Positions 4,741 through 25,608 of a stretch of DNA of 25,609 nucleotides are shown piece by piece. The notes beneath the pieces were generated by a model that saw nothing but the letters and a program-made list of their open reading frames with translations, was not told the origin of the DNA and made no database searches. A program made the translations under genes and the position numbers. The DNA lies in NCBI GenBank assembly GCA_013813145.1, contig JACCSE010000231.1:1-25609 (forward strand), written 5' to 3'. Source of the DNA: Gemmatimonadales bacterium (GTDB lineage Bacteria > Gemmatimonadota > Gemmatimonadetes > Gemmatimonadales > GWC2-71-9). How positions within the stretch are numbered: the stretch's first letter is position 1; each line of letters starts with the position of its first letter.

Positions 4741-5691
4741 TTACTGCCCCGCTGCCCCCCCGCCCCGCTGCCCCCCTGTTGCCACCGGCAACTCCGCCTT
4801 CGCCGCCCACTCGGTCCACGAACCGACATACACCTTCACCCGCGGATACCCCAGCAGGTACCGCAGCGTGAAGTGGACGTGGCTGGCCTCCGTGGCGCTG
4901 TTGCAGTAGGCGATGATCGCCTTGTCCGGAGTGATCCCCTGCGCCGCGTACTCCGCTCGGAGCTGTGCCGCCGGCTTCCACACGTGGCCGAAACCACCCA
5001 ACGTCAGGTCGCTCTGCCAGTAGTGGCTGATCGCGCCCGGAATGTGCCCCCGCCGCACCTGCGCCCCGGCCTCCCCGGCGTACTGATCCGGCGGCCGGGC
5101 GTCCACCAGCAACGCATCTCCGGTGCGCATGGCACGCTCCGCTTGCTCGAGCGAGGCCCGCTCCGGCTGGAAGCGTGCGGGCGGAAACTCGGTGGCTGCC
5201 ACCCGGGGATACCGCTGATCCACCGGACGGTGCTCCAGGAGCCATTTGAAGTAGCCCCCGTCCAGGACGTAGACCTGGGGATGACCGAAACCCGCCAGCA
5301 GCCAGGCGAGAAAGGTCGCGTCGATGTTGTGGGTCTCGCCCGCGCTGTAGATCACCACCGGGCGCTCAAAGGAAAACCCCAGGCGTCCGAACAGCTCGGC
5401 GTAGCTCGACTGGTCGAGCAGTTGCGTCGGCAGGCCGCCCTGGCTGGCGCGCAGGGTCTCGGTGTGCAGGAAGACGGCGCCCGGCAGGTGGTCCTTCAGA
5501 TACGTCGCAACGTCGGTACGGACGTCCACCAGGCTGACGGACCGCTCGCGCAGCCACGCCTCGAGGGTGTCGGTCGAAACGATGCCCGGAAGTGAGGTGG
5601 CCACGTCGGCGCGGGGGCCTTCTTCGGCACGGTGAGTGGCGCATCCGACGAGGAGCGCCGCGAGGAGCAGCGCCACCCATTTCCGTCTCAT
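4741..5691 (-). CDS. Tandem-domain rhodanese/sulfurtransferase, lipoprotein
   Basis: LVDVR...HLPGA, VYVLDGGYFKW, LVDARPPDQYAG...RGHIPGA, catalytic YCNSATEAS, YVGSWTEW. Signal MRRKWVALLLAALLVG-C. ATGA overlap with the upstream gene. Confidence 0.9.
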   Translation of the reverse strand: MRRKWVALLLAALLVGCATHRAEEGPRADVATSLPGIVSTDTLEAWLRERSVSLVDVRTDVATYLKDHLPGAVFLHTETLRASQGGLPTQLLDQSSYAELFGRLGFSFERPVVIYSAGETHNIDATFLAWLLAGFGHPQVYVLDGGYFKWLLEHRPVDQRYPRVAATEFPPARFQPERASLEQAERAMRTGDALLVDARPPDQYAGEAGAQVRRGHIPGAISHYWQSDLTLGGFGHVWKPAAQLRAEYAAQGITPDKAIIAYCNSATEASHVHFTLRYLLGYPRVKVYVGSWTEWAAKAELPVATGGQRGGGAAGQ

Positions 5692-14114: not shown

Positions 14115-15132
14115 GGACGAGCTTCACGCCTACCTGGACCAGGGATTGAGCCGCACGCAGTGCGTCGAGATCGAAAGCCACCTCGCCGACTGCTCCTCGT
14201 GCCGCGCCTCCCGCGACCGGATCGCGGCGCTCAGGGACCGCACGACTTCGCTTCTGGCCCGGCTGGCACCGCCGCGCCAGATCCCGCCCGCCTTCGAAAG
14301 CCTGCGCCGCCGCGCGGCGGAAGAGGCGTCCCAGCGCCGCCGTCGTGCCCATGTGGCCGCCTGGGCCGCGAGCCTCGTGGCCGCCGTGGGGTTCGGGTGG
14401 ACGGCCAGCTCGGTCATCGGAACCCGGGCTCTCGCCAACCCGGAAGTTGTGCAATCGCCCCCTCCAGTGCCCCGTGCCATAGCGGCGAGTGCGGCCGAGC
14501 CCGGACCGGACTCCGCGCCGGCGCGGGGGGCACCGGCTCCCACCGCTCCTGCCGTTGCCCGCCCGGAACGCGTCCAGCGCGCCCCCGCTCAGGTGGTGTC
14601 GCGCCCGGCTCGTCCGAGCCGCTCCGCTAAGGATTCGCTCCGGGCGGCGATGCTGGCCGTGCTCGACCCCGCCCCGGCGGTGGAGCTCACCCAGCTCGAT
14701 GACTCCCGCTCCCGAAACGCCGGCGAGTTCGACGGCATGTGGCGGACGGTATCGTGGGATGGCGCCCGGGCCGAGGCGGGCGAGCGGCTGCCCCACATCG
14801 ACGGCCTGCGGGTGCTCAAGGTGCAGGTCCAGGCGGGCGAACCGGGCAAGCGCTCGGTCATGGTCGTGGCCCAGCAGCTCTCTTCGGGGCAGGTCATCCA
14901 GACCATCGAGGGACCCGCCTCCGACGTCTCTCAACTCCTGGCCCGGCGCGCGATGAGCGGCGTGGATTCCGTGGTTCTGCGCGGCGACTCCCTGACCCGC
15001 AGCGCCGGGGGCGATCACGCCATGGCCATGCAGCTCGGCGACGACCGTATGCTCGCCATCACCGGCGCGCTGCCGTCGGACAGCCTGCGGGCGATGATCC
15101 GACGGTTGAATGCGGAGATGAGGAGTAAGTAG
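14098..15132 (+). CDS. Zinc-binding (ZAS/zf-HC2) transmembrane anti-sigma factor
   Basis: HIPEDELHAYLD...HLADCSSC (HxxxCxxC), one TM segment AAWAASLVAAVGFGW, Pro/Ala linker, C-terminal extracytoplasmic domain. Overlaps the sigma gene by 17 nt. Confidence 0.85.
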   Translation: MRHIPEDELHAYLDQGLSRTQCVEIESHLADCSSCRASRDRIAALRDRTTSLLARLAPPRQIPPAFESLRRRAAEEASQRRRRAHVAAWAASLVAAVGFGWTASSVIGTRALANPEVVQSPPPVPRAIAASAAEPGPDSAPARGAPAPTAPAVARPERVQRAPAQVVSRPARPSRSAKDSLRAAMLAVLDPAPAVELTQLDDSRSRNAGEFDGMWRTVSWDGARAEAGERLPHIDGLRVLKVQVQAGEPGKRSVMVVAQQLSSGQVIQTIEGPASDVSQLLARRAMSGVDSVVLRGDSLTRSAGGDHAMAMQLGDDRMLAITGALPSDSLRAMIRRLNAEMRSK

Positions 15133-15225
15133 GTCGCAGGTCTCAGGTCGCAGGTCTGTTGCAGAAAAAGACCCTCCCAGTGGCTCACGGGAGGGTTTTT
15201 GCTTGGGACCTGCGACCTGCGACCT
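15131..15225. repeat. Inverted array of AGGTCGC heptamers enclosing a terminator
   Basis: Left AGGTCGCAGGTCTCAGGTCGCAGGTC (15131-15156); right GACCTGCGACCTGCGACCT (15207-15225), whose reverse complement is AGGTCGCAGGTCGCAGGTC. Confidence 0.85.
15165..15200. terminator. Bidirectional rho-independent terminator
   Basis: AAAAAG-ACCCTCCC-AGTGGCTCAC-GGGAGGGT-TTTT between the convergent anti-sigma and actF genes. Confidence 0.85.
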
Positions 15226-16585
15226 ATCTTGGCTTCTCCCTCCGCTCCACCAGCTCCGGCCTCACGTAATCCTGCGCGCCCTCCTCATGCAGGAACTCGG
15301 CTTCCACGATCGCATGGCCGCGCTCGCGGTTGAGGGTGATCTCGGCCAGGCGCGGGGAGACCATGGGAAAGGTGCGGGCGAAGAGGGCGTAGGTCAGGAG
15401 GTAGAGACCCAGAAACGCGAGCGTGGGCCCCGCCTCGGCGACACCAAAGTGCGGGCCGGGCAGGACCGACACCGAGGGCATGACCAGAAGGTAGCGCTCC
15501 AGCCAGAGGGCCACGAGACTCAGCGCGGCGAAGAAACCGAGGGTGAACCGCGTCTTCTTGGGGGCGACCCCGAGGAGCCCGAAGAACGGGATGACGAACA
15601 TTCCCAGGAAGACCGCCCGCCCCACCGGCAACCAGTGACCCCACAGTCGCGCGTAGACGAAGCCGGTTTCCTCCGGCAGGTTGCCGTACCAGATAACCAG
15701 GAACTGGGCCCACATCAGGTAGGCCCAGAACACGGTGAAGCCGAAGCACAGCTTCCCCAGGTCGTGCCGCTGCTTGGGCGAGACCAGGTCGGCGATCCCG
15801 AGGTGCGAAGCGCCGTAGATCGTCATCAGGGCGAGCAACATGTGCGCGCCCAGGAAACTGCCCATGAAGTAGAAGCCGCCCAGCAGGTTGGAGAACCAGT
15901 GCGGCTGGAGCGCCATGATCCCGTCGAACGCCACCATGCTGAACACGATGGCGTACAGCACCGCGTAGGTCGGCGCGAGCCGGTAGATCCGCGCCTCGTG
16001 CGCGGTGGCGGCCTGGGGCGAGTCGTATTTCCGCGTCCACCGGTCGTAGAGCGATCGGCGGCCGGGCCCGGCCGCGGCGCGGACGGCGTACATGTCCGGG
16101 ATGAGATCGGCCCGCACCAGCTTCCACCCGACCAGGTAGAGCGCCACGAGGCCCACCGCCAGACGGATGAACATGAACTCATGGGAGAGCCACACCGCCT
16201 TGCCGTGCTGCAGCTCGTGCAGCGCGTGCTCCATCGGCCCGTAGATCGGCGCGTAGCCCACCGTGAAAATGAGCAGGAACCCCAGGAGTGATATCGGCAG
16301 GAACGCGACCGAGGCCTCCGCGAAGCGGATCACCAGCCCGGACCATTTGGCGTTGGTGATCTTCTGCACCGCCGCGAAGGCGATGCTTCCGCCGGCAAGG
16401 CCGGTGAAGTAGAGCCAGTTGACGTGGAAGAGCTGCCAGGCGCGGGCGCCGCCCTCGCCGAGGAGCGACTGGATGAAGAAAAACAGGCCCAGCACCGTGA
16501 GCCCGCCGCCGATGCCGAGAAACAGCTCGTACCTGCCGGCGAGGGCCCGCTCAACCAGACGGGCGTGGATGGTGCCGGGGCTCAT
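15224..16585 (-). CDS. actF: Alternative complex III subunit ActF (NrfD-like membrane protein)
   Basis: Polytopic; FDGIMALQPHWFSNL, HDLGKLCFGFTVFWAYLMWAQFLVIWYGNLPEE. ATG 16585 overlaps the actE stop (ATGA). Confidence 0.85.
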   Translation of the reverse strand: MSPGTIHARLVERALAGRYELFLGIGGGLTVLGLFFFIQSLLGEGGARAWQLFHVNWLYFTGLAGGSIAFAAVQKITNAKWSGLVIRFAEASVAFLPISLLGFLLIFTVGYAPIYGPMEHALHELQHGKAVWLSHEFMFIRLAVGLVALYLVGWKLVRADLIPDMYAVRAAAGPGRRSLYDRWTRKYDSPQAATAHEARIYRLAPTYAVLYAIVFSMVAFDGIMALQPHWFSNLLGGFYFMGSFLGAHMLLALMTIYGASHLGIADLVSPKQRHDLGKLCFGFTVFWAYLMWAQFLVIWYGNLPEETGFVYARLWGHWLPVGRAVFLGMFVIPFFGLLGVAPKKTRFTLGFFAALSLVALWLERYLLVMPSVSVLPGPHFGVAEAGPTLAFLGLYLLTYALFARTFPMVSPRLAEITLNRERGHAIVEAEFLHEEGAQDYVRPELVERREKPR

Positions 16586-22192: not shown

Positions 22193-22269
22193 GGCTATCA
22201 GCTATCGGCTATCGGTCCGCGGGAGCGGAGGACCGGTGCTGCAGGACCGATAGCCGATAGCGGATAGCC
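22193..22269. repeat. Inverted GCTATCR heptamer array (26-bp stem, 1 mismatch) between actA and actB
   Basis: GGCTATCAGCTATCGGCTATCGGTCC (22193-22218) pairs with GGACCGATAGCCGATAGCGGATAGCC (22244-22269); 25-nt loop. Confidence 0.9.
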
Positions 22270-22270
22270 T

Positions 22271-22858
22271 TCAGTAATGACACACCGAACAGTCCCGCGA
22301 CACGTTCCGCTCCAGATGGCACGTGATGCAGAAGCCCATCTTGTCCACCTGATTCACCTTGAACACCTGGGGCATGCGGGCGACGTCGCCGTGGCAGGTG
22401 GCGCAGGCGTTGGGGCCCATCGCCTTGATGTGGCGCTGGTGGGGGAAATGGGCGTGGCGCGGGATGAAGTGGACGCGGACCCACTCGGTCGGCTTCTTCT
22501 CGGACCAGGCCTGCCGCACCTTGGCGATCTCGGTCCGGCTCGCGCTATCGCTCCCGGAGATCACGAGATGGCAGCCCATGCAGGTCTGAGTCGAGGGGAT
22601 CCCCGGTTCCGGCGACACGGCCACGGAGTAGTGGCAGTACTGGCACTGGATCTTGAATTGTCCGGCGTGGATGTCGTGGCGGAAGAAGATCGGCTGCCGG
22701 GGACCTCGGAGCGCGGCGGTGTCGCTGATGACGGGAGCCGCGATGGAGTCAGCGACGGCGGCCGCCTGCTGGGCCTGCGGGGCCGGATCGGCGAGCGCCA
22801 GCAGCGCCGCTACTCCCCCGGCCCCGACGCCGCCGAGCACGATTGCCAACGTACGCAT
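22271..22858 (-). CDS. actA: ACIII subunit ActA, pentahaem cytochrome c
   Basis: N-terminal hydrophobic anchor; five CxxCH motifs (CQYCH, CMGCH, CATCH, CITCH, CSVCH). Start set at ATG 22858; the ORF track start at 22948 overlaps the putative promoter. Confidence 0.88.
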   Translation of the reverse strand: MRTLAIVLGGVGAGGVAALLALADPAPQAQQAAAVADSIAAPVISDTAALRGPRQPIFFRHDIHAGQFKIQCQYCHYSVAVSPEPGIPSTQTCMGCHLVISGSDSASRTEIAKVRQAWSEKKPTEWVRVHFIPRHAHFPHQRHIKAMGPNACATCHGDVARMPQVFKVNQVDKMGFCITCHLERNVSRDCSVCHY

Positions 22859-24278: not shown

Positions 24279-24419
24279 GGCTATTGGCTATGGGCGATCG
24301 AGATCGGGTATCAGCTATCGGCTATCGGTCCGCGGAGAGCGGAGGCTGGGTACTCCAGGGCGGATAGCCGATAGCTGACAGCCGATAGCTGATAGCCGAT
24401 CGCTGATACCCGATCGCCC
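24279..24419. repeat. Inverted GCTATCR heptamer array between pilT and trmJ
   Basis: About seven degenerate heptamers (GGCTATT GGCTATG GGCGATC...GGTATCA GCTATCG GCTATCG), a loop, then eight reverse units (GGATAGC CGATAGC TGACAGC CGATAGC TGATAGC CGATCGC TGATACC CGATCGC). Confidence 0.88.
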
Positions 24420-24423
24420 TCCA

Positions 24424-25608
24424 TCATCCCTCCCCCAGAAACGACGCATCATGCCGCTTGGCCTTCAACGCCGCCGCGAAGCCGGTCTTTTCGACGGCCT
24501 TCATGTACGCTTCCTTGGGCTCGACCTGCCTGGCGTCCACCAGCTCCATGAGGGCGTCGTTCAAGGTGACCATGCCGACCCGGCGGTTGGTCTGCATGAT
24601 GGAGGGGATTTGGAAGGTCTTCCCCTCGCGGATGAGGTTGCTCACCGCGGGAATCGACAGCAGCACCTCCCGCGCCGCGACCCGGCCGCCGCCGATCTTC
24701 TTGCAGAGCGTCTGGGCGATCACCCCGCGCAGCGACTCGGAAAGCATCACCCGAACCTGCGACTGCCGGTCCGCGGGGAACTGATCGATGATGCGATCGA
24801 TGGTCGACGCCGCCGTGGTCGTGTGCAGGGTGCCGAAGACCAAGTGCCCTGTCTCCGCCGTTTCGATGGCGATGGACACCGTCTCCAGGTCGCGCATCTC
24901 GCCCACCAGCACGATGTCGGGATCTTCGCGCAGCGCGGCCCTGAGCGCCTGCTTGAACGACCGGGTATGCAGGCCGACCTGTCGCTGGGTCACCAGACAC
25001 TTCCGGCTCTGGTGTACGAACTCGATCGGATCTTCGATGGTGATGATGTGGTCGGTACGGGTGCGATTGATCAGGTCCACCAGCGCGGCGAGGGTGGTGC
25101 TCTTGCCCGACCCGGTCGGGCCGGTGACGACGACGAGGCCCTTGGTGAGATAGCAGAGGTTCTGCACCTCGCGGCTCAGCCCCATGTCGTCCGCGGTGAG
25201 CACCGTGGTGGGAATCACCCGGAACACCGCCATGGGCCCGCGGCGGTCCCGCCCGGCGTTGCAGCGGAAGCGGGCGAGCCCCTCGATTTCGTAAGCCCAG
25301 TCGGTGTCTGCCGTCTCCTTGAACTCGCCCACCTCACGCGGCGTCATGATGCTGAGCAGCATCATCTCCAGACGTTCCGGCGGCACTGCCGGCAGCTCCT
25401 CGCGAACCAGTTCTCCATCCCGCCGGAGGAGGGGCGGCTCGCCCGAGCGCAGGTGGAGGTCGGAGGCTCCCGAGCTCACCAGCCTGCGGAACAGCTCCTC
25501 CATCGCTTCCCGCGCCTCCGACAGATCGGGGCCCGCCACGGCGGCCGCAGGCACGGCGGGCGCAGGAACGGCGTCCCCGGCCGGCCGCACCACGGCGAGC
25601 GCGGCCGC
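24424..25608 (-). CDS. pilT: Type IV pilus retraction ATPase PilT family, 5' end beyond the right edge
   Basis: ASDLHL, GPTGSGKSTT, ITIEDPIE, ALREDPDIVLVGEMRD, AETGHLVFGTLHT, AVSNLIRE. The frame stays open to the window edge. Confidence 0.9.
   Translation of the reverse strand, partial: AAALAVVRPAGDAVPAPAVPAAAVAGPDLSEAREAMEELFRRLVSSGASDLHLRSGEPPLLRRDGELVREELPAVPPERLEMMLLSIMTPREVGEFKETADTDWAYEIEGLARFRCNAGRDRRGPMAVFRVIPTTVLTADDMGLSREVQNLCYLTKGLVVVTGPTGSGKSTTLAALVDLINRTRTDHIITIEDPIEFVHQSRKCLVTQRQVGLHTRSFKQALRAALREDPDIVLVGEMRDLETVSIAIETAETGHLVFGTLHTTTAASTIDRIIDQFPADRQSQVRVMLSESLRGVIAQTLCKKIGGGRVAAREVLLSIPAVSNLIREGKTFQIPSIMQTNRRVGMVTLNDALMELVDARQVEPKEAYMKAVEKTGFAAALKAKRHDASFLGEG

Follow-up and report, generated by a model that had tools for sequence, protein, structure and literature searches.

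Two inverted arrays of tandem heptamers, at positions 22193-22269 (copy 1) and 24279-24419 (copy 2) of a contig of a Gemmatimonadales bacterium (JACCSE010000231.1; the window below is this whole stretch of 25,609 nucleotides), are probably gene-less members of a class of heptamer-armed hairpins resembling the intervening sequences (IVSs) of 23S rRNA genes, the gene-bearing members of which enclose a gene for a four-helix-bundle protein of the PF05635/TIGR02436 family; this protein, 'S23p', was originally discovered within such IVSs. Multiplication of the hairpins has brought them to dozens of intergenic sites unrelated to one another, typically directly after a stop codon. Their arm unit equals that of a PF05635 cassette resident in the same genome, and the sites that they fill turn over from one species to the next. 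Because the loops of 25-37 nt hold no open reading frame (ORF), and no PF05635 gene lies between the arms, we regard the two copies as satellites rather than as cassettes. The window corresponds to contig C116 of a 2.98-Mb metagenome-assembled genome (MAG), here called G000, which comprises 608 contigs with 69% G+C and is 82% complete.

Anatomy of the two hairpins

Direct comparison within the 25.6-kb window recovers an identical 27-mer at 22196-22222 and 24309-24335, for which the chance expectation is ~2e-8. Either copy runs from GGCTATC-type heptamers, the first base of which varies between G and A, through GGTCC into a loop of ~25-30 nt, and then through closing bases (GGACC in copy 1, GGGCG in copy 2) into an inverted GATAGCY array. 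The 24-nt loop cores, at 22223-22246 and 24337-24360, are identical at 20 of 24 positions and lie in the same orientation. Tandem Repeats Finder resolves 3.3+3.3 units in copy 1 (22193-22269) and 7.3+8.0 units in copy 2 (24279-24418). Although the outer units of copy 2 have degenerated, its two arms remain complementary (for instance, GGCGATC with GATCGCC). Whichever strand is folded, both copies form a long hairpin (z-scores -5.5 to -8.8). The parts of the two elements are:

22193..22213, unstranded: copy 1 left arm, 3 heptamers
22214..22248, plus strand: copy 1 closing GGTCC/GGACC pairs and loop; core 22223-22246, 2 mismatches to the family consensus
22249..22269, unstranded: copy 1 right arm, 3 units; stop codon of the multihaem cytochrome c gene (22271-22273, minus strand) 1 nt away
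24279..24326, unstranded: copy 2 left arm, ~7 GGCTATC-type heptamers, the outer ones degenerate
24327..24363, plus strand: copy 2 closing pairs and loop; core 24337-24360, 4 mismatches to the family consensus
24364..24419, unstranded: copy 2 right arm, ~8 GATAGCY units; stop codon of the T2SSE-type ATPase gene (24424-24426, minus strand) 4 nt away

Going by Pfam matches, copy 1 lies between genes for a multihaem cytochrome c and a molybdopterin/FeS protein, an alternative-complex-III-like pair, and copy 2 between genes for a T2SSE-type ATPase and a SpoU methylase; all four genes are on the minus strand. No run of T, as expected of an intrinsic terminator, follows either copy on either strand. 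A preliminary description of this DNA had reported the 27-nt core identity, the continuation into a loop followed by inverted arrays, unit numbers of 3+3 against about 7+8, and a placement between co-oriented genes in the same orientation. Each of these statements agrees with the anatomy given here, and the two traits that it saw combined, tandem heptamers and a palindrome, are both present.

A dispersed and lineage-restricted family

Fuzzy searching of G000 with the loop core of copy 1 (window positions 22223-22246) recovered 43 copies with heptamer arms and unrelated flanks, 4 of them exact and 13 with one base different. At up to 3 mismatches G000 has 36 occurrences of the core and the sister species G005 has 18; elsewhere in the genus there are only single, chance-like matches, in 2 of 101 other genomes. 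The reversed sequence is uninformative as a control for such mismatch searches, since a reversed tandem unit is a rotation of itself. The exact loop pattern has no match in a collection of genomes from 185,579 species, the family being too young or too narrow for exact matching. The two copies of the window therefore belong to a dispersed, lineage-restricted family, as had been surmised, and do not represent a local duplication.

A repeat-agnostic scan of G000 returned 253 period-7 arrays, 186 of which have an inverted partner within 250 nt, where chance would provide ~0.003 per array; for periods 5 and 6 chance partners predominate in DNA so rich in G+C, and these periods could not serve as controls. 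Under a strict definition, which leaves out arms cut by contig ends, G000 has at least 73 hairpin loci. In the elements of the window's family, the arms are built of 3-10 tandem heptamers, and the stems reach ~50 bp (median 40). Beyond the family of the window hairpins, the genome holds further heptamer families (CGCAGGT/CTCAGGT, AAACGGT/AACGGTG, ACCCTCG and GACGGCG) and an abundant octamer family, GGGGCAGN, with 90 arrays.

These data bear on the idea that no mobility is involved, the arrays arising in place by slippage or template switching and PF05635 genes merely landing or surviving in the resulting hairpins. Heptamers are named as the commonest long simple repeat in bacteria in a passage of PMC4679880; unit numbers vary between arms and between species; the loops of other families are site-specific, one of them enclosing a native terminator-like hairpin; and at the site of copy 2 a congener, G009, has arms that repeat the loop-closing GGTC motif. 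An origin in place is nonetheless unlikely, because the presence of the same 24-nt loop at 43 unrelated sites in G000 and 18 in G005 requires copying between sites. It also sits poorly with the sharing of one heptamer unit by ~60 loci within a genome, a unit that differs between the sister species, and with the match between arms and resident cassettes.

PF05635 cassettes with the same arms

Three of the G000 hairpins have unusually long 'loops', each of which encloses a small ORF. A PF05635 profile search of the whole of G000 yields exactly four matches, namely these three ORFs and one at a contig end. All four genes adjoin arrays, and the three that are fully assembled are bracketed by inverted arrays:

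Contig C495: PF05635 cassette, inverted arrays with the unit GCTATCG
Contig C316: PF05635 cassette, inverted arrays with the units GTCGAGG/CGCAGGT
Contig C120: PF05635 cassette, inverted arrays with the unit GACGGCG
Contig C383: PF05635 gene with GGGGNCAG octamers upstream; the gene runs off the contig end

Each of these units also characterises a gene-less family of G000, and the arm unit of gene-less hairpins equals that of a resident cassette in five genomes, G000, G005, G102, G009 and G097. In G005 the same loop lies, in 18 copies, between GAAGGTC/CTTCGAC arms, and a cassette of that species (locus L196) has GAAGGTC arms. The sole cassette of G102 was predicted to have GGCTATC arms and was then found to have them, and in both G009 and G097 the cassette units agree with those of the gene-less hairpins. 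Because the same loop carries other arms in G005 and at the copy 2 site in G009, loop and arms are, on these comparisons, separable modules.

The best PF05635 protein of G000 matches TIGR02436, the structure 2GSC (XCC0516 of Xanthomonas campestris) and, more weakly, the Avd protein of diversity-generating retroelements (DGRs). The match on contig C316 (1529-1735) reaches no further than position 69 of the 106-position profile; this copy looks decayed but has kept its heptamer arms.

The association extends through the genus, where 84 of 103 genomes have between 1 and 10 PF05635 genes. Among the 30 best PF05635 loci, arrays lie 50-190 nt upstream in all 30 and 20-100 nt downstream in 27, one of the remaining three being cut by a contig end. 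In a phylum-wide sample, period-7 arrays adjoin the gene in 19 of 23 loci, and in other classes of the phylum the inverted arms are made of octamers or of ~7-nt units instead. Five unpublished genomes (G003, G046, G082, G083 and G270) contribute to nothing beyond the counts for genus and phylum and the loci L182, L253 and L028; L182, from G083, is among the 30 best loci, and no conclusion hangs on these genomes. The orientation of cassette genes relative to their neighbours shows no bias (10 same, 10 opposite, with a crude gene caller). Protein identity tracks the similarity of arm units (Spearman -0.30, 0 of 2000 permutations as extreme, n=43 cassettes), such that units within one change of each other are found in 61% of pairs with more than 70% protein identity and in 2-6% of pairs below 55%.

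Beyond the phylum, six plasmid loci were checked. Four-helix-bundle genes on plasmids of Nostoc punctiforme and Calothrix are accompanied by inverted GGGTGTR arrays. A Picosynechococcus plasmid (L224) has such a gene between cas10 and cmr3, with inverted octamers, and a Pseudanabaena plasmid (L222) has one between cas6 and cas4, with direct arrays of ~15 and ~12 units. In plasmid AZO_p2 of Azospirillum lipoferum 4B (L223, 13689-15301) a 23S rRNA gene (RF02541, 980 bits) harbours a PF05635-like ORF that is not annotated and has heptamer-like inverted arms; this is a genuine ORF-bearing IVS.

Turnover of sites among relatives

The cytochrome/molybdopterin junction that holds copy 1 (the act junction) was recovered in 28 loci of the genus, one of which (L028) comes from G046. 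Relatives that the cytochrome gene brought up are soil MAGs labelled Gemmatimonadales. About 19 of the 28 loci hold a heptamer-array hairpin, with units that differ (GGAGTCN, GAGGTCN, GCTCATA, GGTCACG and others); some instead have a TCATCCTGAGCG-type hairpin, and some nothing. The same mix, including empty spacers of ~17 nt, recurs at this junction in 80 further species of the order. Where filled and empty sites are compared, it is the whole hairpin that differs, between the stop codon and the ribosome-binding region.

The site of copy 2 gives a similar picture. The element is common to G000 and G102 (L247), with the same arms and with the loop inverted relative to the flanking genes, a pattern that suggests either flip-flop inversion of what the arms enclose or a second, oppositely oriented insertion. 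In G009 other arms surround that loop, six more genomes have other arrays or hairpins, and in 19 of the 28 relatives recovered (one of them, L253, from G083) the spacer measures 5-25 nt. For five of the G005 copies, the orthologous sites in G000 either lack heptamer and octamer arrays or hold another family, so replacement of arms at the same site between these two genomes was set aside as an explanation.

In the act junction of G009 (L005, 1350-1520) a 198-nt spacer contains ~15 GCTAACG/GCTCACA units and then GCTGATA units. Complementarity between its arms is only partial, each unit having one mismatch, and it looks as though one unit were in the course of replacing another.

A reading that goes back to the preliminary description is that of a repetitive extragenic palindrome (REP) or REP doublet forming a hairpin (REPIN), mobilised by a RAYT, a transposase of the Y1 HUH type. 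Y1_Tnp genes do occur in 50 of 103 genus genomes, usually in single copy, and the element is a high-copy intergenic palindrome. The attribution is nevertheless highly improbable. No Y1_Tnp (PF01797) was found in G000, at 82% completeness, and 21 of 46 high-quality genus genomes are without one; six Y1_Tnp genes of the genus have no heptamer arrays within ~1 kb, so that the repeat-flanked RAYT/HUH gene that had been envisaged did not come to light; and in G064, which has no Y1_Tnp match, the act junction nonetheless holds a heptamer hairpin. Tandem heptamers in variable number are also foreign to REP anatomy, and arms of 3-10 heptamers with stems of such length do not take the REP/REPIN form of a 20-40-nt imperfect palindrome with a head motif. 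A profile search of G000, again at 82% completeness, found no RVT_1 reverse transcriptase.

At the act junction of eight loci (L014, L027, L028, L035, L092, L093, L113 and L120) there is a dispersed hairpin built on TCATCCTGAGCG...CGCTCAGGATGA, a motif that occurs 55 times in G000. This hairpin could be the true REP-like partner of the RAYT genes of the genus.

Placement and strand tests

The edges of hairpins lie at a median of 3 nt from an adjacent stop codon (within 10 nt in 73%) and of 32 nt from an adjacent start codon, and arrays often start at, or overlap, the stop codon. Co-directional, convergent and divergent gaps hold 43, 8 and 8 hairpins, against 670, 166 and 293 background gaps of at least 40 nt; divergent gaps are under-represented (8 of 59 hairpins vs 26% of intergenic gaps), and hairpins are also present in them.

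With regard to strand, the loop has no preferred orientation relative to flanking genes (12 to 13), and the two strands are evenly matched in fold energy (22 to 21). Stem mismatches show no excess of wobble pairs, with G:T to A:C counts of 49 to 63 when oriented by the loop and 27 to 41 when oriented by the sense strand; an RNAfold-based count, being biased towards G:U, was discarded. In two mini-helices considered as candidates within the loop, and in the closing stem, pairs are broken and a single change is compensatory. Rfam yields no match at the gathering score, nor any at E up to 10 beyond a chance-level microRNA match (E=0.68). The orientation, wobble and compensation tests thus give no sign of a strand-specific RNA under selection, and selection at the RNA level was dropped as an explanation. 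Because orientation bias, wobble excess and compensation are all missing, it seems that the palindrome is maintained at the level of DNA, or else that it is simply young.

Placement after stop codons, the rarity of divergent gaps and the presence of heptamer-array hairpins with differing units at most act junctions would all suit cis elements selected by the host, either arrays bound by a regulatory or chromosome-organising protein, as suggested for Geobacter, or RNA hairpins between cistrons that serve to uncouple or stabilise them, their structure being kept while the sequence drifts. As the hairpins are not followed by a T-run, they would be better suited to processing or stabilisation than to termination. 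We consider such host selection rather improbable as the explanation of the family, given the even loop orientation, the want of a G:U over A:C excess in sense-oriented stems, and loop changes that break pairs without compensating them. Moreover, many species have hairpin-free spacers of 5-25 nt at the same sites, and the copy number ranges from 0 to ~30 per Mb among congeners.

The same data speak to the suggestion that the conserved loop is a recognition site for a protein or transposase. Recognition of the loop itself is unlikely, because the loop lies between different arms in G005 and G009, is flipped in G102, and shows neither orientation bias nor covariation.

Other array families in the window

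Two further arrays in the window belong to other families:

15129..15227, unstranded: second-family hairpin, arms AGGTCGC/AGGTCTC vs GACCTGC
4744..4778, unstranded: octamer array CTGCCCCN, of a third, abundant family

The hairpin at 15129-15227 lies between convergent genes, one for a zf-HC2 protein and the other a 605-aa ORF with no Pfam match, and its 'loop' is a terminator-like GC hairpin with flanking runs of A and T. The octamer array at 4744-4778 adjoins a GGTGTGCCGTT motif; several arrays of this family stand in inverted pairs that share a AACAGCACACCGG-like inner motif, and its unit is the same as that of the arrays beside the fourth PF05635 gene of G000 (C383).

Proposed mechanism and its standing

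We propose that the hairpins spread by copying at the DNA level, in a process that recognises the heptamer arms and that would operate without a RAYT and leave no target duplication to be seen. The copying may involve the resident four-helix-bundle protein, which is the candidate factor because it is the only constant companion of the arms. The arms would be kept complementary, or homogenised, through slippage and template switching within the palindrome, processes that are established for quasi-palindromes. A duplex of 26-50 bp, if transcribed within an operon, would be a likely substrate for RNase III, by analogy with rRNA IVSs (PMC4990558), and its cleavage would cut or stabilise the message between cistrons. 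Both the mobility of these hairpins and their cutting are inferred.

Several points weigh against placing the two copies in an IVS-like class tied to PF05635 cassettes: 1) Sequence comparisons in G000 and its relatives identified no mobility enzyme and caught no movement directly. 2) No target-site duplication is visible at the filled and empty sites compared, where the ends of the element are fuzzy. 3) A higher PF05635 copy number does not go with more hairpins, as in G092, which has 10 genes and about one hairpin in 180 kb; the four genome samples behind this comparison are too few for a conclusion. 4) The gene-less AAACGGT family has no cassette in the assembled 82% of G000. 5) The loop has no clear homology to the inner ends of cassettes, which are themselves not conserved, and shares a single 8-nt match with them; derivation of the loop by internal deletion is therefore unproven, and the candidate reading of the loop as a deleted cassette was rejected. 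6) Plain co-inheritance, or common descent alone, could give the correlation between protein and arms. 7) Transcription of the hairpins and their cutting by RNase III are predictions.

A bolder and more tentative possibility is that the PF05635 protein acts in trans as the factor of an unrecognised mobile or self-maintaining element, with each variant of the protein reading, or helping to write, its own heptamer. That unit would then make up the arms of the protein's own cassette and of gene-less satellites alike, and the loop of a satellite could be re-armed upon a change of the resident protein. If true, this would tie together the 23S IVSs, the heptamer arrays of Xanthomonas, Geobacter and cyanobacteria, and the orphan, Avd-related 'four helix bundle protein' family. 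To our knowledge, the rRNA IVSs have been without an origin story for more than 30 years, and PF05635/TIGR02436, a large family with a solved structure, has no known function. G000 offers a natural experiment in this respect, since it carries a young gene-less family of 43 copies, the loop of which recurs in G005 on different arms that match the cassette there; this pair of genomes makes cassette mobility and arm recognition answerable by binding and mobility assays. The hairpins also matter for annotation, since they break short-read assemblies, and they sit inside operons, that for alternative complex III among them, in which their presence may lead to cutting or stabilisation of the mRNA.

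Comparison with known systems

The closest likeness is to the ORF-bearing 23S IVSs of Coxiella and Leptospira, which have a stem of terminal inverted repeats and, optionally, a PF05635/S23p gene in the loop. The IVS in helix 45 of Coxiella burnetii carries an S23p ORF and has a 28-bp stem that is cut by RNase III (Warrier et al. 2016, PMC4990558). Its stem region contains tandem heptamers, GACAGAT, the number of which varies between strains, and it has been suggested that 23S IVSs are selfish or were mobile in the past (PMC4990558). The Azospirillum IVS described above has the same layout, with heptamer-like inverted arms. The window elements share the long inverted-repeat stem and have gene-bearing siblings with the same arm unit in G000, but they differ from 23S IVSs in being outside rRNA (both lie between protein genes, not in helix 25 or 45), in lacking a gene, in their short loops and in occupying spacers between protein genes dozens of times over. 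Excision by RNase III, shown for the 23S IVSs, is for the window elements a prediction by analogy. Compared with the heptamer-armed PF05635 cassettes, they have the bracketing inverted 7-8-nt arrays and lack the enclosed gene. Compared with MITEs (miniature inverted-repeat transposable elements), they have inverted arms, but no transposase with these arms was found in the genomes searched, and the link of loop to cassette is the 8-nt match alone.

Paired heptamer arrays have been reported in Xanthomonas and Geobacter. In X. campestris and X. axonopodis there are ~70 convergent GGGAATC pairs per genome, mostly intergenic and mostly transcribed, the positions of which are conserved between the two species while unit numbers differ; they were read as G-quadruplex formers (Rehm et al. 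2015, PMC4692102). The unit of the window is not G-rich, and the Xanthomonas paper reports neither a conserved loop nor a link to PF05635; the crystal structure 2GSC (XCC0516) comes from X. campestris. Geobacter metallireducens has species-specific, dispersed opposite-strand pairs of 3-5 tandem repeats of 7-9 nt, as in the proB-proA spacer, where a sister species has a different repeat at the same site, and these were proposed to be 'global regulator binding sites' for IHF/HU (Aklujkar et al. 2009, PMC2700814). The Geobacter pairs differ in their variable spacing, and no gene cassette or loop family has been described for them.

The REPs of Proteobacteria, with their higher-order forms (bacterial interspersed mosaic elements, BIMEs, and REPINs), are alike as high-copy intergenic palindromes that follow stop codons in operons and can stabilise upstream mRNA. 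They differ as single, short, imperfect palindromes tied to RAYTs, whereas the arms in the window are tandem heptamers with no RAYT link. The short tandemly repeated repetitive sequences (STRRs) of cyanobacteria are tandem heptanucleotide repeats in intergenic DNA, described as direct arrays; in our spot check of six loci, inverted heptamer arrays bracket four-helix-bundle genes on Nostoc and Calothrix plasmids.

The occurrence of PF05635 genes inside cas operons has been noted previously (PMC3936711), and a literature search on the family names returned nothing that links the PF05635 protein family to heptamer arms in general. The earlier suggestion that the element is possibly undescribed holds in part, since gene-less inverted heptamer arrays as such are published (PMC4692102, PMC2700814); the connection with PF05635 cassettes had escaped the preliminary description. 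What is new in comparison with these systems is a large gene-less satellite family with a shared loop, with satellite arms that match resident cassettes, and with the same loop on different arms in a sister species.
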